The notes beneath the pieces are model-generated. The model was not told the origin of the DNA, did not search any database, and was given only the letters and a program-made list of their open reading frames with translations. Made by a program: the position numbers and the translations under genes. Positions 15,362-47,259 of a stretch of 64,000 nucleotides of DNA are shown piece after piece. The DNA comes from Vulcanimicrobiota bacterium (GTDB taxonomy: Bacteria; Vulcanimicrobiota; Vulcanimicrobiia; Eremiobacterales; Eremiobacteraceae), in NCBI GenBank assembly GCA_963812135.1, contig CAWETU010000001.1:2240001-2304000 (forward strand). The letters run 5' to 3'. Position 1 is the first letter of the stretch. Each line of letters begins with the position of its first letter.

Positions 15362-16782
15362 TTGATCAGATGGTTGTGGCTGGCGTCGGCGCTGTATGCG
15401 CTGGCCGCCGGCACGCTGGTGACGATCCATTGGATGCGCTGGCAGACCGGCGTGGACACGGGCGTCTACACGCAGGTCGTGCTCAACACGTTCAACGGGT
15501 TCCGCTCGACCTTCGAAAACGGGCCGCACTTCGCGGTGCACTTCTCCCCGCTGCTCGGCATCTTCTTCCCCTTGGTGGCTGTCACGCATTCTGGTCTGGC
15601 GCTGGAACTCGCGCAGGTCGCGCTCATCGCGTGCGTGCCGCTTGCGCTCTATGGCTTCGTTCTGCCTCACGTCGGCGAGGCGCTGGCGCTGCGCGTCGGC
15701 TTCATCGCGCTGCTGTATCCGCCGCTTGCCGCGATCGGCATCGGCGAATTTCATATCTTGGCATGTTTGCCGCTGCTCGTCATCGGCGCCCTGTGGGCGT
15801 TGGACCGAGGGCACGGCGCCTGGTTTGGGTTGTTCGCGGGCATGTTGTTGTTGGTGCGCGAGGACGTGCTCCTCGAATTGCTGGTCATCGGAGTGGTCGG
15901 TGGCATCGTCGCGTTACGCGCCTCGCATGGCGTGGGTTCGCTGTTCGCGTCGCCTGCGTCGCGCGGTTTGGTGGGCGCCGCGAGTATCGGGCTCGGCGTC
16001 GCGTCGGGCGCAATGGCCGGATTGTATTTCGGCGTCATCCAGCCGGCGTTCGGCCACTACGGTTGGTACCCGCTGCTCTACTATCGTTTCGGCATCACGC
16101 GCGGCTCGGTGGGCGCGCTCTCGCAGCCGCCGGTCGGCCCGCCACCGAACCCGAGCGCGTCATTGCCGCGACAGCTTTTCGAACGCTTCACGTACTTGCT
16201 CGAGGCGTTCGTGCCGCTGGCGCTGTTGCCGTTTCGCACATGGTGGTGGTTGCTTGCGGTGCCCGGCTTGACGATCGTCCTTGCGGCGACGAGCGCGTCG
16301 ATCTGGACCATGGGCTCGCAGTATGCGCTCTTGTGGGCGCCGTGGCTGCTCGTCGCGACTGCGGTCGCCGTGATCCACGTTCGCGCCACGCTGGGGGAGG
16401 CCGTGGCGCGCCGTTGGACGGGAGCTGCGATCGGCTTATGCCTTGTCTTTCTCGTCGCGATCAACCCGATGCATCTGCAATACTATTTCCGGCCGCCCTA
16501 TCACGATTTGGCTTCCGCACAGCGCGCGCTGGCGTGTGTGCCGAGAAGGGGCATCGTGTGGCGACGCACGACGAATGGTTCACCCACATCGCGGGCACCA
16601 ATCCGCTTGCCAACGGCAATGTCGTCACCGGCGTTGACTACCTCGTGTATGCCGACGACTATCCGGATGCGGCGTTCGAGCGCGAGGTCAAACCCAAGTT
16701 ACAAGCGGAGATCGCGGCCGGCCGCGTGCGCGTGTTGTGCTCGTTCGGGAGCGTGAAAGCGTATCAGAAAACGGTCGAATAA
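15362..16782 (+). CDS. DUF2079 family membrane protein (frameshift near 16560)
   Basis: DTGVYTQ, HFAVHFSP, EFH, RED motifs, many TM helices. Confidence 0.82.
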
Positions 16783-16795
16783 ATTCGACCGATAC
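16772..16795 (-). repeat. GTAG-type REP palindrome (GTAT variant)
   Basis: CGGTCGAATAAATTCGACCG+ATAC; contains the upstream gene's stop codon. Confidence 0.8.
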
Positions 16796-17019: not shown

Positions 17020-17117
17020 TGCCGCCACCTCCGTGGCCGTCATACTCTATATCGGTAAAACTAAGCGAGCAAGCACAACGTTACGGCTGCGCTGATGAAA
17101 GCCGCATTAGAGTCAGG

Positions 17118-17174
17118 AAAAAGAAAGAACCAGCGCTTTTACGCTGGTTCTGGTGCGGGTGCAGACCTGTCACT
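17118..17174 (-). ncRNA. Antisense sRNA, locus 1 (complementary to the tRNA-like RNA)
   Basis: TATAAT at 17179-17184; 24-nt complement of 17293-17316; GAACCAGCG/CGCTGGTTC stem plus U-tract. Confidence 0.7.
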
Positions 17175-17258
17175 TATGATTATACCGTCTCCTTCGTAGA
17201 GGATCGCAAGGGGCCGGCGTCAGACCTGTGCCGCCGCCCCCTTCCGCATAGCGGAGGC

Positions 17259-17326
17259 TGGAGGCGTCGGGAATCGAACCCGAATGCACGACGTGACAGG
17301 TCCGCACCCGCACCAGCGGCGCCCCC
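17259..17326 (-). ncRNA. 68-nt compact tRNA-like RNA (Ala acceptor stem, GUC anticodon), locus 1
   Basis: GGGGGCG/CGCCTCC-A acceptor, CCGC-TGGT-GCGG D arm, CTGTCAC loop, TCGGG-TTCGATT-CCCGA T arm; TTGACG-18-TATCTA upstream. Confidence 0.75.
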
Positions 17327-17443
17327 AACCGCGTTAGATATCACGACGGCACCCGCAACGTCAAGAAGCGTGGCGGATCTGGCGACTCGCGTTTTCATTT
17401 TGCTTTCACGCGAAGGCTGGCTTGGGTTGCTATCCTTGGTGCT

Positions 17444-20762: not shown

Positions 20763-20819
20763 GAAAACAGGTCGACCGCGCCTTTCAGCGCGGTCGATTG
20801 CTAACACTGGACCGTCACC
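20763..20819 (-). ncRNA. Antisense sRNA, locus 2
   Basis: TTGCAG-17-TATAAT promoter (20847-20852/20824-20829); 13-nt exact complement of 20943-20955, extendable with G.U pairs; 10-bp terminator stem. Confidence 0.72.
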
Positions 20820-20906
20820 TTAAATTATACCGATTCCTGAAGCGAGCTGCAAGTGGGCAGCGTCTGGTCCGTGGTCGCTGCCCGCTCTCCGCTTTGTATC
20901 GGAGGC

Positions 20907-20974
20907 TGGAGGCAGCGGGACTCGAACCCGCGACACGCGGCTTGACGGTCCAGTGCCGGCACCTGCCCACCCCC
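20907..20974 (-). ncRNA. 68-nt compact tRNA-like RNA (Ala acceptor stem, GUC anticodon), locus 2
   Basis: GGGGGTG/TGCCTCC-A, GGC-AGGT-GCC, CC-GTC-AA loop, GCGGG-TTCGAGT-CCCGC. Confidence 0.75.
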
Positions 20975-21026
20975 AACCAACCGCCCCTATCACTGAAAGC
21001 GCTCTGGCCGTAAAGGTCTTGGGGCG

Positions 21027-27272: not shown

Positions 27273-27551
27273 ATGGCTGATCCAGAGAAAGCGACCAAAG
27301 GGAGCGATTGTTTCGCCGAGTGCCGCCAGCTCCTCGATGATTGTATGTCGATGGCCCAGACCGATGCTGACAAAGCCGCGTGCGCAGCGGATTTCAAGAC
27401 TTGCGTCAGCTATTGTCCGGATCAGTTCGCCGAACGCGATTGCTATACCGCGTGCGCGACCGCCTACGACTCGTGCATGGCAACTGCCGGCAGCGATGCC
27501 GAGAAGGCCGCGTGCGCGGTGAAGTATCAGAATTGTCTCGCCAACTGTTGA
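27273..27551 (+). CDS. Cys-rich small protein, two CX3CX6CX12CX6CX3C repeats
   Basis: AAGGA RBS, 12 Cys in two identically spaced units. Confidence 0.8.
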   Translation: MADPEKATKGSDCFAECRQLLDDCMSMAQTDADKAACAADFKTCVSYCPDQFAERDCYTACATAYDSCMATAGSDAEKAACAVKYQNCLANC

Positions 27552-27576
27552 CGGTCGAATAAATTCGACCGCTACA
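27552..27576 (-). repeat. GTAG-type REP palindrome
   Basis: Consensus copy; its GTAG supplies the TAG stop of the TPM gene. Confidence 0.88.
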
Positions 27577-40895: not shown

Positions 40896-41207
40896 TCACA
40901 GGCGCAGCTCCGCGACCAGCCGAGATACTTTCTGCAGGTGCGCCGGATCTGGCGCAGCGCGCGCGTTTCTGCTTTGATTGCAAAGTTTGTGGGCTAGGCG
41001 CAAGTTGTCGAGCTCTCCCCTCCGGCCACCTTGACTGACGGGTACGATATGGTCGACGGTTGGGGCACATGGATGACTCTGTCTTTTCTGGCCCTTCAAA
41101 CCCTCGTATGGCGCGTCGAAATACATCGGCAGACGGCAAATCTGACAGTTCCGTCCGTCGCGCTTGACCAAGGTCCGGATGATGGCGTGGAGCGTGACCT
41201 TGCTCAT
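40896..41207 (-). CDS. HNH endonuclease
   Basis: RDG..CQIC, TVDHIVP.SQGG...NL.LAH..CN. Confidence 0.9.
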   Translation of the reverse strand: MSKVTLHAIIRTLVKRDGRNCQICRLPMYFDAPYEGLKGQKRQSHPCAPTVDHIVPVSQGGRRGELDNLRLAHKLCNQSRNARAAPDPAHLQKVSRLVAELRL

Positions 41208-41216
41208 TCTGAGCTT

Positions 41217-41558
41217 TTACAAGAACAGGGAAACCGGCACCTTGAAGAATTTCGCAAAGCTCTTAGCCGCGTTCACACCGATCTTCCGTTTGCCCGCGAG
41301 CATCTGACTCGCGGTGCCTTTCGACTTGATGATCGCACCCAGCTCTGAGACCGTCAGGCCGCGCGCTTGCATCAGCTCCCGCAGAATATCAGCGGGCGCC
41401 GCCTGTTCGGGCCACGGATAATGCTCCTCCTCGTACTTTTCGATCAGCGTGGCGATCAGATCGAGATACGCCTCTAGCGCGGGCGTCAAGGTTCGCGCCG
41501 CGAGGAGATCTCGAGCCTCGGCGAGCGCCTTCTTGTGCTCATGCTCTGTGCGGATCAT
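41217..41558 (-). CDS. HigA-like HTH antitoxin
   Basis: IRTE.E...AL, L..LIEKYEEEH, LM..RGL...EL, GKRKI. Confidence 0.85.
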   Translation of the reverse strand: MIRTEHEHKKALAEARDLLAARTLTPALEAYLDLIATLIEKYEEEHYPWPEQAAPADILRELMQARGLTVSELGAIIKSKGTASQMLAGKRKIGVNAAKSFAKFFKVPVSLFL

Positions 41559-41570
41559 AGCAACCTGCTA

Positions 41571-41921
41571 CTAGTCCTTTTTTCGTGGCGCATGCACGCC
41601 GCCTACCGCCCGCGTTACGAGTTGAGGCGCCCATTCAATGACACGCAACAGATTACGTGCAAGCTGATCGGGTTTTGACCGTCCTTGTTCCCACTGCTGA
41701 ATGGTTCGTTGGCTAAGGCGGAACCGCCGCGCAAATTCGCTTTGCGACAAGCCGAGCCTACGGCGAATCGCCTTCACATTCGGCGGTCGCGGGTTAAACG
41801 GCCGATGGAAATGGAGCTCCTCCAGCTTTATGCCCAGCGCCGCACGCTCTTCCGCCGCAAGCCGCGCTATGGTGGCCTCGTCGTGGGACTTGATGAGCTC
41901 CCAGTTAATTCTCCCCTTCAT
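41571..41921 (-). CDS. XRE HTH antitoxin-like protein
   Basis: VKAIRRRLGLSQSEFA...TIQQWEQGR..PD. Confidence 0.85.
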   Translation of the reverse strand: MKGRINWELIKSHDEATIARLAAEERAALGIKLEELHFHRPFNPRPPNVKAIRRRLGLSQSEFARRFRLSQRTIQQWEQGRSKPDQLARNLLRVIEWAPQLVTRAVGGVHAPRKKD

Positions 41922-42219
41922 CTCGATACCCCATATGTCGAGCATATTCGTCGATCTCTGATCGCTCGGACTTCCACGCGGTGATGATTCGTTTGCGATC
42001 GCCTCTCATCGTATAGACAGCAGTGATGAACAAATCGCCCGTACACCCGATCGCTTTCATCTGCTCTTCGCCGTCGGCGCGATAACGGATCCAAGCATCG
42101 ACATAGTTCTCCCCCTCGAACATCTCCGCGACGACGTGAAAATCGAAACCATGCCGCGCGAAGATTTCCTCGCTCTTGTCCAGGTCCCATTCAAAATGTT
42201 CGTCGATATAATCGGGCAC
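41905..42219 (-). CDS. BrnT family toxin
   Basis: FEWD..K....HG.DF, GEE...AIG, VYT.RG...RIITA. Confidence 0.85.
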   Translation of the reverse strand: MPDYIDEHFEWDLDKSEEIFARHGFDFHVVAEMFEGENYVDAWIRYRADGEEQMKAIGCTGDLFITAVYTMRGDRKRIITAWKSERSEIDEYARHMGYRDEGEN

Positions 42220-42302
42220 GGCGACCGTCCAAGAGAATCCAGCTATACGTTTTACAACGTACTACGTTGGAAGCGTACAGCGCTTAACATGCACGCTGCG
42301 CT

Positions 42303-42327
42303 CGGTCGAATGAATTCGACCGCTACA
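42303..42327 (-). repeat. GTAG-type REP palindrome
   Basis: CGGTCGAATGAATTCGACCGCTACA. Confidence 0.85.
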
Positions 42328-42493
42328 GTGCGACCGAACGCATGTTCGGTATCACGCCGACCGCTCCGACCGTCAAGAGCCGCGTGGAGTTGTACGATCC
42401 AGCTGGCAAGACCGTGCGTAGCAGCCGCCTCGTCGCTCGGCGATCGCGTAACGGTGAGTGGCCGGCCATGAACGGGTTCATGAGCGCCGGCTT

Positions 42494-42518
42494 GGGTCGA
42501 GTAAACTCGACCGCTACA
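42494..42518 (-). repeat. GTAG-type REP palindrome with a compensatory pair
   Basis: GGTCGAG-TAAA-CTCGACC (A:T changed to G:C). Confidence 0.85.
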
Positions 42519-42602
42519 GACTTCTTGCTCCGGCTGTTATTCGGGAGTGACAAAGCGGCGCGAACTCAAGAAGGGCTGAGCCGCATGGGCAGATCCATTC
42601 CG

Positions 42603-42658
42603 AAAAAAAGCGAGACCACCGCACTTTTGCGGTGGTCTCGGCGAGTCCGTCAAACCAC
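42603..42658 (-). ncRNA. Antisense-family sRNA, locus 4
   Basis: TTGAGC-17-TATACT with extended TG; GTGGTTTGACGGACTCGCC; 12-bp stem plus T7. Confidence 0.68.
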
Positions 42659-42736
42659 GCCGTTAGTATAGCATAGCCTTCCGATAAGCTCAAACTTCGG
42701 GGCGCCGAGTTTGCTGCCACGCGCCCCTCAAGCATT

Positions 42737-42763
42737 TCGCCCGCCCACCAGGGACTTGCCCCC
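42737..42763 (-). pseudogene. 5' remnant of the tRNA-like RNA, locus 4
   Basis: TTGGTT-GGGGGCA-AGT-CCC-TGGT-GGG-CGGGCGA, then no anticodon loop or T arm; TTGACA upstream. Confidence 0.55.
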
Positions 42764-42845
42764 AACCAAGCCTGTTGTCACGCTGCGCCGAGCCGGTGTC
42801 AAGACACAACGGGAATGCGCTTGGCAACGGTGTAGGACTACGAGC

Positions 42846-43667
42846 ATGATGAAGACCGAAAAATCTCAACCTGTCGCGTTGATCTCGGGCGCGTCGTCCG
42901 GCATCGGAGCGGCGATCGCGACGGCGCTTGCCGAGCACGGCTACCGCGTGTTCGGCACGGCCCGCGATCCTGGCAAATCGCCGAAACTGCCCGGCGTCGA
43001 AATGTTAGCGCTCGACGTCCGAAACCCAACGTCGGTGCAAGACTGCGTCAGAGCCGTGCTCGAGCGCGCTGGACAGATCGACGTCCTGGTCAACAACGCA
43101 GGCGTCGCCTTCGTCGGCGCAGCCGAAGAGTGCAGCGATGCCGAGATCGCCGCTCAATTCGAGGTCAATTTCTACGGCGTCGTGCGCATGACGCGAGCCG
43201 TGCTTCCGAGCATGCGCGAGCGGCGACGCGGCCACATCATCAACATGAGTTCGCTGGCGGCGAGAACCGCCACGCCGTTCCAGGGCGTCTACCCGGCGAC
43301 GAAGGCCGCGGTCGAGGGTTATTCAGAAGCGCTGCTGCATGAAGTGTGGCCGTTCGGCATTCACGTCTCGGTCATCGAGCCTGGCTTCATCCACACCGGC
43401 CTGGCCGAGCATAGCGAGCGAGCTGCCGCGCCCATCGCGGCCTACGATCGCTGGCGCGAGGCGGCAGCTCTGTCGATCCAGCATCAGATTGATACTTCGC
43501 CGCCTCCGTCTGTGGTGGCCAAATCCGTGCTTGACGTGCTGGCGTCGAAGTCACCGCGCTTTCGCTACCCGAGTGGGAACGCTAGGTCTGTGCTTTGGGC
43601 ACGAGCGTGGGTTCCCGAGCCGCTCTTTTATAGGGTCTTCCGCCGCCGATTTGGATTGGCGACATGA
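42846..43667 (+). CDS. Short-chain dehydrogenase/reductase
   Basis: SGASSGIG, NNAG, YPATK, EPG. Confidence 0.93.
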   Translation: MMKTEKSQPVALISGASSGIGAAIATALAEHGYRVFGTARDPGKSPKLPGVEMLALDVRNPTSVQDCVRAVLERAGQIDVLVNNAGVAFVGAAEECSDAEIAAQFEVNFYGVVRMTRAVLPSMRERRRGHIINMSSLAARTATPFQGVYPATKAAVEGYSEALLHEVWPFGIHVSVIEPGFIHTGLAEHSERAAAPIAAYDRWREAAALSIQHQIDTSPPPSVVAKSVLDVLASKSPRFRYPSGNARSVLWARAWVPEPLFYRVFRRRFGLAT

Positions 43668-44089
43668 CCTGCATCGAATAGCGCAACAACTCCCAACTCT
43701 TGGCCTTGGGGCGCTTGCGCCGCGGACGCGATGCTCACGAGATCCGCGCCGAAGCCGAACAGGAAACCGCAGGTGAACGCGTCGGCGACGCTGATCGCGC
43801 GGTAGCGCCCGCGGATGGCGATCATGTACAGGATCGGTGCGGCGACGATCGCGTGGGCGAGGATGAACGAGAGGACGTTGACCGTGACCTGTGTGCTGGT
43901 CTGATCCTGACCGCGCCAGCCGTACGGGTTGACGAAGATGCCGGTCACCGCGATGGCCAGCGGCCCGTAGATCATGCCGGCGGCGAGGAATCCGAGAAGG
44001 GTCCTCGTGCTCAGCGTGACGCGCAGGCCGACGATTCTGATGAAGACGTACGTCCAGGCGACGACGAGAGCAAGCCACAAAACCGACAT
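43628..44089 (-). pseudogene. Truncated duplicate of the membrane protein N-terminus at 46838
   Basis: Near-identical to 46476-46861, then diverges. Confidence 0.7.
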
Positions 44090-45154: not shown

Positions 45155-46838
45155 TCACTGCGGAGCGGCCGGGAACATGCGGCGCGCGAGCAGGCGCAAG
45201 ACATAGACGAGCACGGCGATGGCGATGAGCAGCACGAACACCGCCACGCTGGCCAGAATGTCGAGCAGGTTCTGCACGTTGAAGCCGAGTGCGGGGAACC
45301 ATGCCGCGGCGACGTGGGCGTGCAGATTCGCGCGCAGCCAGTCGAAGAACGCAGCGCCCAGCATGACGGCAAAGGCGGCCAGCCCGACGATGAAGAGGTT
45401 GGTCTTGACGCGTGCGACCGGCCCGAGGAATGGCTGCGGTGTTTCGCCCGGCCGTGGCGGTGCCGGCGTGGTCGCAGCGCATCCGAGCAGCGCGAAGACG
45501 AGGACGAAACTCGCGACGTCGAGCGCGATCGGCGCGAGCAGGCCGCTAGTGAGCGTGCTCATGCGCGCGTCGACGCCGAAGACCAGCACGAGCAGCGCGA
45601 TGCCAAGCCCGACTTGCAGGGCGAGGGTCGTATCCGATCCGTTCAGACCAGCATCGGTGGTACGTGCGGCCGCCGGGCTGCCGGCGCGCATGACGAAGCG
45701 CCACGCCACGACGAGCAGCAGCGCGAATTCGGCAAGCGTGATGCCGTTGAGCCCCGCGGGCACCGACTGCAAGCCGGGCAGCGTGATGATAACGGCGCGC
45801 AGCGCCGGTATCTTCGGCAGGATGATGACGACGATGACCGCGAGCGCCCACCACGCGATCACCGGCAGTCCAGCCCGCGAGGGCAGTACGCCAGGTCGCG
45901 ACGGCCGGGTCGGACTGCGACGGGCGCAGACGGGGATGGCGACTGCGGCAGGCGGCGCGTTGGCGCCCGATGTCGCCATCTCGGCGCGCGGAGCAGCGCG
46001 CGCCGTTTGTCGCGGAACTCCGCGCCAAGGCGGGCGAAATCGTCGAACTTGCGTTGCACGAGCGCATCTCCCAGCGCCGAGCAGCTCGACAAAGGGCGAC
46101 GAAATGTCTGCGCTCGCCTCAAGTTTCGCGCTGGCGCCGGATCCAGCCGGTCTCCGCCCACTGCAGCGCGATCAATGCGAGCAGGGCGACCCATGCGGTC
46201 GCAGCGCCGTGGAAGACCAGCGCGCTGAAGCGCGTCGCGGTATCGGACTGCGACACGAGCATGGCGTGTTCGAAGGACCACCACAAGACGGCGGCCGCGG
46301 CTGCCAGATATGCAAGCGGCAGCTGGCGCGAAAAGCGCGCGACGGCGACGAAGAGCATCGCCGTGAGGCCGGTCCAATACGCATAGCCGGCCAGCGTCAC
46401 GCCGGCTGACGACACGACGAACGGCGGCACGATCGAAAAACCCGTTGGGATATCGCTCGATTGCGCGACGGTGAGCGCGACGCTCACGAGATCCGCGCCG
46501 AAGCCGAACAGGAAACCGCAGGTGAACGCGTCGGCGACGCTGATCGCGCGGTAGCGCCCGCGGATGGCGATCATGTACAGGATCGGTGCGGCGACGATCG
46601 CGTGGGCGAGGATGAACGAGAGGACGTTGACCGTGACCTGTGTGCTGGCCTGATCCTGACCGCGCCAGCCGTACGGGTTGACGAAGATGCCGGTCACCGC
46701 GATGGCCAGCGGCCCGTAGATCATGCCGGCGGCGAGGAATCCGAGAAGGGTCCTCGTGCTCAGCGTGACGCGCAGGCCGACGATTCTGATGAAGACGTAC
46801 GTCCAGGCGACGACGAGAGCAAGCCACAAAACCGACAT
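45155..46838 (-). CDS. Multi-pass membrane protein, probably one gene with a frameshift near 46100
   Basis: Two consecutive hydrophobic ORF pieces; GGAAGG RBS before ATG 46838. Confidence 0.55.
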
Positions 46839-46861: not shown

Positions 46862-47181
46862 TCGCGAGCGGGCGATTTGCTGTCGGGAGCGGGGTTCGGT
46901 CTGTTTCGCCTGCATTCCGCCCGGGTGTGTCGGCCCGGGCTATTCCTTTGGCTTTTGCGCGCTTTCGACGCTGTTGATCCGCGCACGCACCCATTAAAAA
47001 GGGCACTGCGTTCTCTCGCTCAGTTCGAACGCGGCGCACGACCGCTGACGCCAATTAGCCGCTGAGTCGATCCAGCACCGATCGACACGCCCCCTGCGCC
47101 TTCCGTAGTGGCCGTGTCAGTCCTCGACGCGCTGCGGTCCAGATCACGGCACTTTCGTTACCCGGCGGGAGCGCGTGGCTG

Positions 47182-47259
47182 GTGCTTTGGGCGCGAGCGT
47201 GGGTTCCCGAGCCGCTCTGCTGTCGGGTCTTCCGACGCCGATTCAACCTTGCCACATGA
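47182..47259 (+). repeat. Diverged copy of the SDR gene 3' end
   Basis: GTGCTTTGGGCxCGAGCGTGGGTTCCCGAGCCGCTCT...GGGTCTTCCGxCGCCGATT...ACATGA shared with 43590-43667. Confidence 0.75.

Follow-up and report, generated by a model that had tools for sequence, protein, structure and literature searches.

A truncated tRNA-like gene beside a preserved antisense small RNA gene in a Vulcanimicrobiota genome: a putative decayed member of a family of two-RNA modules

We analyzed a stretch of 64,000 nucleotides (nt) from a Vulcanimicrobiota bacterium (assembly GCA_963812135.1, contig CAWETU010000001.1, positions 2,240,001 to 2,304,000; the whole stretch is hereafter the window), and in particular a locus at positions 42603-42802, minus strand, in which the beginning of a tRNA-like gene is followed by a complete gene for a predicted antisense small RNA (sRNA). 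A preliminary description, made from the letters alone, had presented this locus, here called locus 4, as a module that lost its tRNA-like body and kept its promoter, the trailer hairpin and the sRNA. All letters quoted there were found by direct reading on the minus strand, and both this reading and an alignment with a closely similar intact module in G011, a genome of a related genus, support the account. The features of locus 4 are the following:

42797-42802, minus strand: -35-like hexamer TTGACA of the promoter of the tRNA-like gene (direct reading; aligns with the promoter region of the intact G011 module)
42776-42781, minus strand: GTGACA, the conserved GTGA motif of the family, in the -10 region of the tRNA-like gene (direct reading)
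42769-42737, minus strand: TTGGTT+GGGGGCA+AG+TCCC+TGGT+GGG+CGGGCGA (direct reading)
42737-42763, minus strand: remnant of the tRNA-like gene, its first 27 nt (direct reading, G011 alignment and family structure)
42763-42757, minus strand: 5' acceptor strand GGGGGCA, within the remnant
42756-42744, minus strand: mini D arm AG-TCCC-TGGT-GGG with a TGGT loop, within the remnant
42743-42737, minus strand: 5' strand of the anticodon stem, CGGGCGA, within the remnant
42736-42728, minus strand: deletion junction and filler, a 9-nt spacer AATGCTTGA (alignment with G011; bridged by a contig of soil run X1)
42699-42727, minus strand: second trailer hairpin GGGGCGC (42727-42721)/GCGCCCC (42705-42699) with a 15-nt loop, homologous to the G011 trailer hairpin
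42665-42693, minus strand: near-consensus sRNA promoter, TTGAGC-17 nt-TATACT (direct reading)
42603-42658, minus strand: orphan antisense sRNA gene (direct reading; aligns with the G011 sRNA)
42658-42640, minus strand: 19-nt sRNA seed, complementary to the lost anticodon arm, within the orphan sRNA gene
42639-42610 and 42609-42603, minus strand: terminator hairpin and its run of seven T, within the orphan sRNA gene

Directly 5' of the remnant stands the family leader GTT (G at -3, T at -1), and of the alanine identity marks discussed below G3 is retained, U70 and A73 having gone with the deleted part. Both the 33-nt 5' half of the locus and the 19-nt seed are unique in the window (expected 0.00 and 0.04 occurrences, respectively), and the sRNA folds with a z of -4.44, no shuffle out of 200 folding as well. 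The reverse complement of the seed begins with GGCGA, the final five letters of the remnant, which bears out the pairing proposed earlier; the continuation of the lost arm that had been predicted from it, GTCC-GTC-AAACCAC, matches the anticodon-arm consensus of the family. The covariance model for intact cloverleaves, run with filters off, found no match on the minus strand at locus 4, and positions 19-42 of the same model (the anticodon arm) gave a faint match to the complement of the sRNA (42639-42662; 8.4 bits, E 8.8).

The extent of the deletion follows from the alignment with the G011 module. The two sequences align at the 5' side from the promoter through the 5' acceptor strand and D arm into the start of the anticodon stem, and again at the 3' side from the second trailer hairpin through the sRNA seed to the terminator. 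What G011 has and locus 4 lacks is the rest of the anticodon arm (loop and 3' strand), the T arm, the 3' acceptor strand with the discriminator, and the first of the two trailer hairpins; between the aligned blocks locus 4 has only AATGCTT, a net loss of ∼57-64 nt relative to G011. Thus the anticodon loop, T arm and 3' acceptor strand had been listed correctly as absent, and the loss of the first trailer hairpin had gone unmentioned. The preliminary description had also asked whether the corresponding locus of relatives contains a cloverleaf and whether the deletion could be an assembly error. The similar locus of G011 holds a full cloverleaf, and a 151-nt Logan contig of soil run X1 spans 42685-42836 in the same truncated form with five other letters and one gap, in a check made with contigs and not with raw reads. 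Since this contig carries the same junction together with these differences, the deletion must also be present in another strain that differs slightly, and an assembly slip is excluded. Contigs of the RNA runs X10 and X18 and of the DNA runs X1 and X2 include none over 42537-42670, which is uninformative either way. An ORF (open reading frame) of 69/70 amino acids (aa), 77% identical, lies 1.3-1.9 kb downstream in both locus 4 and G011; the 103-aa ORFs neighbouring it are unrelated, so that synteny between the two loci is partial. In G005, a genome of the same genus, the same flanks enclose 3.5 kb of other genes and no module, which shows that the site varies; two further genomes of this genus (G001 and G006) match only the BrnT-side flank, and no match was obtained in G002 and G003. 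Taken together, these comparisons support a reading of locus 4 as a module whose tRNA-like gene (gene 1) lost its 3' half by internal deletion and whose sRNA gene (gene 2) is whole.

The window contains two intact modules of the same kind. The sequence GGTTGGGGG occurs three times in the window (0.31 expected; one of 100 shuffles reaches three), and the two copies other than that of locus 4 stand at the head of these modules, both on the minus strand:

17117-17364, minus strand: intact module A, with promoter, 68-nt tRNA-like gene (17326-17259), two trailer hairpins, sRNA promoter and sRNA (17173-17117)
20763-21014, minus strand: intact module B, with promoter, 68-nt tRNA-like gene (20974-20907), trailer hairpins, sRNA promoter and sRNA (20818-20763)

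Scored by the covariance model with filters off, module B reaches 79.6 bits and module A 75.3 bits. Their 68-nt RNAs have an acceptor stem of 7 base pairs (bp), a T arm with a UUCGAUU or UUCGAGU loop and discriminator A, followed by GCC and not CCA, and the genome's own tRNA-Ala(UGC) and tRNA-Ala(GGC) genes are likewise without encoded CCA. In both modules two trailer hairpins are followed by a TTGnnn-17-TATAAT promoter and by an sRNA with a 5' end that complements the central part of the 68-nt RNA; in module A the complement to the D and anticodon arms is 24 nt long (96%). The duplex of sRNA A with its own cloverleaf was calculated at -55.3 kcal/mol vs -29.7 kcal/mol with the best genuine tRNA, and that of sRNA B at -32.8 kcal/mol vs -24.2 kcal/mol; no specific target of the sRNAs was found among the 47 genuine tRNAs of the genome. 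Across the whole genome (2.79 Mb, six contigs) the covariance model finds only A and B as intact copies, the six weaker matches (at most 33.4 bits) being five ARAGORN tRNAs and the 3' end of the transfer-messenger RNA (tmRNA). Single-sequence folds of the A and B cloverleaves (z of -1.12 and -0.84) were uninformative; changes between the cloverleaves are base-pair compensating in the covariation analysis. A conserved peptide ORF was considered and rejected, as the frame in which overlying ORFs cross the homologous T arm differs between A and B.

Relatives were collected by BLAST and then by two rounds of covariance-model search, the first model being seeded from three equal-length members with a hand-written structure. 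At E <= 1e-6 the resulting model, R2, detects the cloverleaf in 61 of the 151 genomes of the class, one of which (G129) is unpublished. By family, with G000 left out, these are 12 of 31 genomes in f1, 48 of 116 in f2 and none of three in f3. In a phylum-wide sample only f1 (3 of 8) and f2 (26 of 71) gave matches, with none in 71 genomes from 19 other families. Copy number varies from 0 to 6 per genome, also within one genus or family, and the positions of the modules are non-syntenic. Tandem arrays occur as well, namely four units ∼312 nt apart in G051:C3 (L070: 1187, 1501, 1810 and 2122) and three units in G076:C87 (79474/79791/80085) at ∼300-nt spacing; some array units look degenerate, with changes in the D loop and T stem, and are without a good cognate sRNA.

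In 24 aligned members 95.3% of the cells are paired, with double changes in 18 of 24 pairs, values reached in none of 500 shuffles and compared with 41-54% paired in slid controls, in an alignment that was fitted to the model and hence leans towards its structure; these data argue for a four-helix cloverleaf. The compact form is 68-72 nt long, with a 7-bp acceptor stem, no encoded CCA, 0-1 linker base after the acceptor stem and 0-2 variable bases. Its D stem of 3-5 bp closes a UGGU-type loop of 4-5 nt (equivalents of G18-G19), the anticodon-like arm consists of 5 bp, a bulge and a further 3-4 bp (8-9 bp in total) under a 7-nt loop, and the T arm is canonical with a 5-bp stem. A T-loop variant, TCCGATT for TTCGATT, recurs in f2 genomes (L262, L266, L244, L249 and L075:1964), which could be decay by point mutation or a tolerated variant.

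Identity marks were tallied over 79 distinct sequences from published genomes (85 matches; the tRNA-Lys-like L230 was dropped). G3:U70, A73 and G1:C72 are each present in 79 of 79 and G2:C71 in 78 of 79, counts that are partly circular since the collecting model, being built from members, favours these letters, and that are not independent since the genomes are related. G3:U70, A73 and G2:C71 belong to the identity set of alanyl-tRNA synthetase (AlaRS; see also PMC10543346), so that by its letters the family is a candidate AlaRS substrate, predicted to be charged with alanine. The loop could be parsed in 76 of these members, three with loop indels being left out, and its central triplet is GAU in 29, GUC in 23, GAC in 16, GCC and GCG in two each, and GUA, ACC, CUC and UGA in one each; none of the 76 has an alanine anticodon. 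The surrounding positions resemble those of an anticodon loop (Y32 in 72, U33 in 55, A37 in 69, and C or A at 38 in 74 of the 76). Upstream of G1, T stands at -1 in 74 and G at -3 in 73 of the 79 members, and U at -1 is preferred in RNase P substrates. Further upstream, 58 of the 79 have a GTGA motif at a distance of 8-16 nt from G1. In the cloverleaf promoter of the family this motif stands in place of a good -10 hexamer and is combined with a fixed G-Y-T leader (in the window at 42764-42781, 17327-17344 and 20975-20993), and transcription of the cloverleaf may depend on another sigma factor or regulator.

The sRNA partner was evaluated in the 77 modules for which 200 nt or more of sequence 3' of the cloverleaf were available. 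Gene 2 follows gene 1 on the same strand after 40-120 nt and has its own near-consensus sigma-70-type promoter and intrinsic terminator. It encodes an sRNA of ∼55 nt, the 5' part of which complements three regions of its own gene 1, namely the D arm, the 5' strand of the anticodon stem and the anticodon loop; this complementarity co-varies module by module. The best ungapped pairing run, with G.U and one mismatch allowed, has a median of 17 pairs for cognate combinations vs 12 for both non-cognate and shuffled ones, exceeds the non-cognate 95th percentile (16) in 46 of 77 modules, and covers the triplet 34-36 in 74 of 77 cognate vs 12 of 77 non-cognate combinations, typically extending from 12 nt before to 4 nt after nt 34. 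Similarly, a 21-nt anticodon-arm probe binds its own downstream region with a median of -31.5 kcal/mol vs -19.1 kcal/mol for others, the cognate region beating all 25 random partners in 62 of 77 modules and failing to do so only in closely related f2 copies and in array units that are degenerate. RNAduplex calculations of the whole cloverleaf against 260 nt did not separate the two groups (cognate -76.1, non-cognate -62.7, with wide overlap). A sigma-70-type -35/-10 pair stands just before the run in 66 of 77 modules vs 3 of 77 control positions, and a perfect hairpin with a T-rich tail follows it in 52 of 77 vs 5 of 77 in shuffled sequence. Among transition-type mismatches within the pairings, 67 are G.T and 23 are A.C on the transcribed strand (binomial p ∼4e-6, for copies that are not independent), an excess which points to pairing between two RNAs of this strand and not to a DNA inverted repeat. 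By these measures the modules possess what is expected of an RNA antitoxin, namely an antisense RNA that is encoded next to its own partner and is specific for it. In family f1 the anticodon arm has a further complement, in the loop of the second trailer hairpin, so that the primary transcript may mask itself in cis.

Truncation is not confined to locus 4, and five remnants were identified:

Locus 4: ∼57-64-nt internal deletion, sRNA kept
L015 of G004: independent ∼55-nt deletion relative to G003, sRNA kept
L037:1307-1378 of G011: without promoter, 5' strand and D arm, sRNA kept
L270 of G035: 13-nt deletion in the 3' strand of the stem, sRNA kept
L274 of G078: 5' half only, no sRNA

In four of them the integrity of the cloverleaf is lost and the sRNA gene kept. 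This pattern of decay fits a toxin-antitoxin logic, and the earlier suggestion that at locus 4 the toxic partner of an addiction module was inactivated is plausible. Among all tRNAs and look-alikes of the genome, the best partner of the orphan locus 4 sRNA is cloverleaf B (-35.3 kcal/mol), with a possible 12-bp duplex including two G.U pairs between 42640-42658 and 20930-20945 (both minus strand) over the anticodon loop and the 3' strand of the stem; cross-protection against cloverleaf B could be a reason why the orphan sRNA is kept.

Outside the class, viral and metagenome collections were searched with a pattern that matched 16 viral-collection loci and at least 118 from metagenomes, 80 of the latter being fetched. 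As this pattern requires GTCA in the loop, its loci are unusable for the triplet tally given above. From the viral and metagenome loci 91 matches to R2 were aligned, comprising both compact forms and full-size canonical cloverleaves. The canonical relatives share the alanine acceptor, their anticodon is GUC or GAC (once AUC), and downstream of them lies a stretch with its own promoter that complements the anticodon arm; their G+C of 0.47-0.75 implies that several lineages are involved. Eight full-size alanine-acceptor tRNAs (G3:U70, A73) with a GUC, GAC or AUC anticodon were noted (L168, L106, L172, L132, L097, L129, L112 and L105), and in the first five of these the downstream antisense stretch is above noise, with counts of 19 pairs in L168, 24 in L172, 19 in L097, 18 and 16 in L132 and 15, all of them Watson-Crick, in L106. 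The five, which were the only ones scanned, reach Rfam tRNA scores of 48-67 bits, and ARAGORN labels the canonical relatives tRNA-Asp or tRNA-Val, so annotation pipelines would mislabel them. Compact alanine-type cloverleaves stand on three viral-collection contigs (L083, L084 and L079; 51-57 bits), L083 with an antisense stretch and promoter; these contigs may be phages or prophage-flanking host DNA. In the metagenome locus L153, ∼60-80 nt after the first cloverleaf, a same-sense copy of positions ∼17-35 is found and not an antisense one, and a second cloverleaf follows.

These observations suggest a model in which the modules are RNA-only, toxin-antitoxin-like pairs, each made of an alanine-accepting, mis-decoding tRNA and an sRNA that masks it, with locus 4 as a decayed member; we consider the case for this model to be evenly balanced. 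The cloverleaf would be cut by RNase P, given its CCA and charged with alanine by AlaRS, and its loop triplet would read Asp, Ile or Val codons, never those of Ala. If free, it would place alanine at wrong codons or tie up translation factors, with harm to the cell. G34 would read NNC and NNU codons, presumably the common ones in a genome of 64% G+C. The sRNA, presumed to be abundant given its much better promoter, would hold the cloverleaf in a duplex, either unfolded or targeted for decay, and the pair would behave as an RNA-only toxin-antitoxin or addiction unit. Locus 4 would then be what the model predicts at the end of decay, a locus at which the harmful partner was lost first and the antidote gene survives. 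Consistent with this model, tRNA-Ala anticodon variants in yeast mis-insert alanine, and 36 of 60 slow growth (PMC10543346).

A wider version of this model, which we offer tentatively and hold to be somewhat short of an even proposition, is that of a widespread RNA-only addiction or defence class, whose toxin would be a tRNA charged with alanine, or a miniature form of one, that reads Asp, Ile or Val codons, and whose antidote would be a private antisense sRNA. The canonical members, found in low- and high-GC metagenome contigs and in the viral collection, would be ancestral and the compact forms of the soil class streamlined; the sRNA would unfold the anticodon and D arms, and an unmasked toxin would poison the proteome by mistranslation.

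Several points weigh against the toxin-antitoxin model. Standard tRNA finders do not place the window copies among tRNAs (ARAGORN reports no tRNA gene in the window, and Rfam, including RF00005, no match in it at gathering score), and the compact forms depart from standard tRNA dimensions, that is, a U8/N9 linker, a 4-bp D stem with a 7-11-nt loop, a 5-bp anticodon stem and at least 4 variable nt. With a bulged anticodon helix of 8-9 bp, 3-4 bp more than in a tRNA, and a minimal D arm, the compact form may be unfit for the ribosome. Furthermore, C33 is found in 20 of the 76 parsed loops, G34 is nearly fixed beyond what decoding alone requires, and the identity counts carry the circularity and relatedness indicated above. 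On the side of the sRNA, the array unit L070:1810-1881 pairs with its cognate region at only -18.3 kcal/mol and is without a good cognate, and as to decay, the remnants are few (n=5) and one of them, L274, lost both partners.

Pairing, promoters and terminators are by themselves silent on which partner is harmful, and they also fit a non-toxic regulatory pair, in which the cloverleaf and the sRNA would titrate one another, in the manner of a sponge and a regulator, to tune something else, and of which locus 4 would be a copy deprived of one partner by drift. Such a pair could serve controlled, adaptive mistranslation under stress, supply Ala-RNA for a non-ribosomal acceptor or control other targets through the sRNA. 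The modules stand in ordinary chromosomal contexts, and Bacillus cereus is known to have a pseudo-tRNA that acts outside translation (PMC3399842). A copy number of 0-6, non-syntenic positions, tandem arrays, a private and fast-diverging specificity in each copy and the asymmetry of four of the five remnants are, however, traits of toxin-antitoxin-like or selfish units more than of a housekeeping regulator; moreover, the sRNAs have no outstanding complementarity to the genuine tRNAs of the genome, a comparison that did not extend to mRNA targets. We therefore regard a regulatory pair as unlikely, if by no means negligible.

A mimic of the tRNA-like domain of tmRNA would be charged with alanine and bound by SmpB/EF-Tu, and would enter stalled ribosomes or titrate SmpB/AlaRS without decoding, with the sRNA as its gate. 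In a permissive Rfam scan of module A the only near models were indeed tmRNA (RF00023; 19 bits, E 7e-6 in a 371-nt search), the tRNA score lying below it, and permuted tmRNA (RF04321; 29.3 bits). Module A and the genome's own tmRNA have identical acceptor stems, and the D region is reduced as in tmRNA. Both scores nevertheless fall below the gathering score of 47, 68 nt contain no mRNA-like part or pseudoknot, and the conserved 7-nt anticodon-type loop (Y-U/C-NNN-A-M) and the canonical relatives would both be needless for a mimic, which makes this explanation quite improbable.

A role at the level of DNA, as a recombination or inversion site or as an integration scar at a tRNA gene, is suggested by the inverted repeat that the elements form 110-150 bp apart around a promoter, and tRNA genes are common integration sites. 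The excess of G.T over A.C mismatches (67 vs 23) speaks against it, as does a repeat that differs in every copy and would be unrecognisable to any recombinase; integration scars are direct and not inverted repeats, the downstream arm has its own promoter and terminator, and no integrase or invertase was found among the 17 ORFs neighbouring the three window loci. This leaves the DNA-level explanation very improbable. That the locus is an artefact, by assembly deletion or chance resemblance in a genome from a metagenome-like source that was compared by contigs and not raw reads, is hardly credible given the junction shared with the independent 151-nt contig despite its five differences, the homology to G011 on both sides of the gap, and chance expectations far below what is observed.

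To our knowledge, no known type of toxin-antitoxin system combines a mis-identified tRNA as toxin with an sRNA as antidote. No module of a tRNA with an antisense sRNA was found in Rfam or in the literature searched (mostly outside subscription journals), and the family described here, widespread in one class of soil bacteria and with relatives elsewhere, is apparently undescribed. If the toxin-antitoxin model is true, the modules would be self-contained two-RNA units in which a mis-identified tRNA is harmful and a small RNA its antidote, linking natural mistranslation to selfish-element or defence biology. The model would also explain 'tRNA-Asp' and 'tRNA-Val' calls with alanine identity, and the modules would offer ready-made orthogonal RNA-RNA pairs, each copy with its own specificity. 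Even without toxicity, this is a lineage-wide family that is absent from Rfam, occurs in 61 of 151 genomes of one class and has covariation in both partners, to which locus 4 adds an evolutionary signal on which partner goes first.

The surroundings of locus 4 are accessory in character and differ in the same-genus genome G005. At 40896-42219 on the minus strand lie an ORF with an HNH-endonuclease domain, two helix-turn-helix (HTH)/Xre-type ORFs and a BrnT-like type II toxin ORF. A palindromic repeat resembling repetitive extragenic palindromic (REP) elements, CGGTCGAAT.AATTCGACCGCTAC, has nine copies between 16769 and 42517 (e.g. 16769-16795, 27549-27575, 42300-42326 and 42491-42517), two of them just downstream of locus 4; X1 contigs join both REP-like copies near locus 4, with 165-168 nt skipped. 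On the other side, a 300-nt direct repeat of 99% identity (43727-44026 and 46476-46775) suggests a recent segmental duplication downstream of a short-chain dehydrogenase gene, and more repeats at 75-80% are found ∼3.6 kb apart (e.g. 43575-43667 / 47167-47259).

Among known systems, the nearest published idea is that of the allo-tRNAs and irregular tRNAs of soil bacteria (Mukai et al. 2017, PMC5389517), which are likewise non-canonical cloverleaves from soil bacteria. According to the available part of that paper, some have G3:U70 with non-alanine anticodons and are charged with Ala in E. coli, some are toxic or inactive, and they often lie near protein toxin-antitoxin genes, the authors suggesting missense suppressors and/or regulatory RNAs. 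Their acceptor/T arms are, however, of 8/4 or 9/3 bp in contrast to 7/5 in the present family, and the word 'antisense' does not occur in PMC5389517, so that no paired sRNA is described there. Similarly, tRNA-ProX of Streptomyces and Kitasatospora is a genomic tRNA whose acceptor identity and anticodon disagree and which causes codon-dependent harm upon expression, as far as the accessible text of PMC11415595 goes; it differs in its proline identity, its protein partner ProRSx, its canonical size and its occurrence in another phylum, and no antisense RNA is mentioned in that text. tRNA-Other of Bacillus cereus also resembles a tRNA without being an ordinary decoder and exerts regulatory effects, but it is a single island-flanking gene, for which the sections of PMC3399842 available to us report neither an alanine identity set nor an antisense partner.

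The likeness to tmRNA (SsrA; RF00023 and RF04321) lies in the 7-bp acceptor stem with G3:U70 and A73, the canonical T arm and the reduced D region. The genome's true tmRNA is normal (C1:1079223-1079575, 353 nt), whereas the cloverleaf has 68-72 nt, no reading frame or pseudoknots, an anticodon-type stem-loop, no encoded CCA and a dedicated antisense sRNA gene. Membership in the tmRNA family was rejected, given scores below the gathering threshold and no room for a tag in 68 nt.

Systems with an RNA antitoxin include type I (hok/sok-like) and type VIII, in which an RNA toxin is countered by an RNA antitoxin (CreTA, SdsR/RyeA). The present modules differ from them in that no conserved toxin ORF, such as the small toxic peptide ORF in the target RNA of type I systems, is found and the presumed toxin would be a tRNA, and in that the antisense gene stands in tandem on the same strand instead of overlapping on the opposite one. 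They share with these systems an adjacent, separately promoted antisense RNA of private specificity that is predicted to be strongly expressed, an occurrence as multi-copy, patchy units, and a decay that spares the antisense gene.

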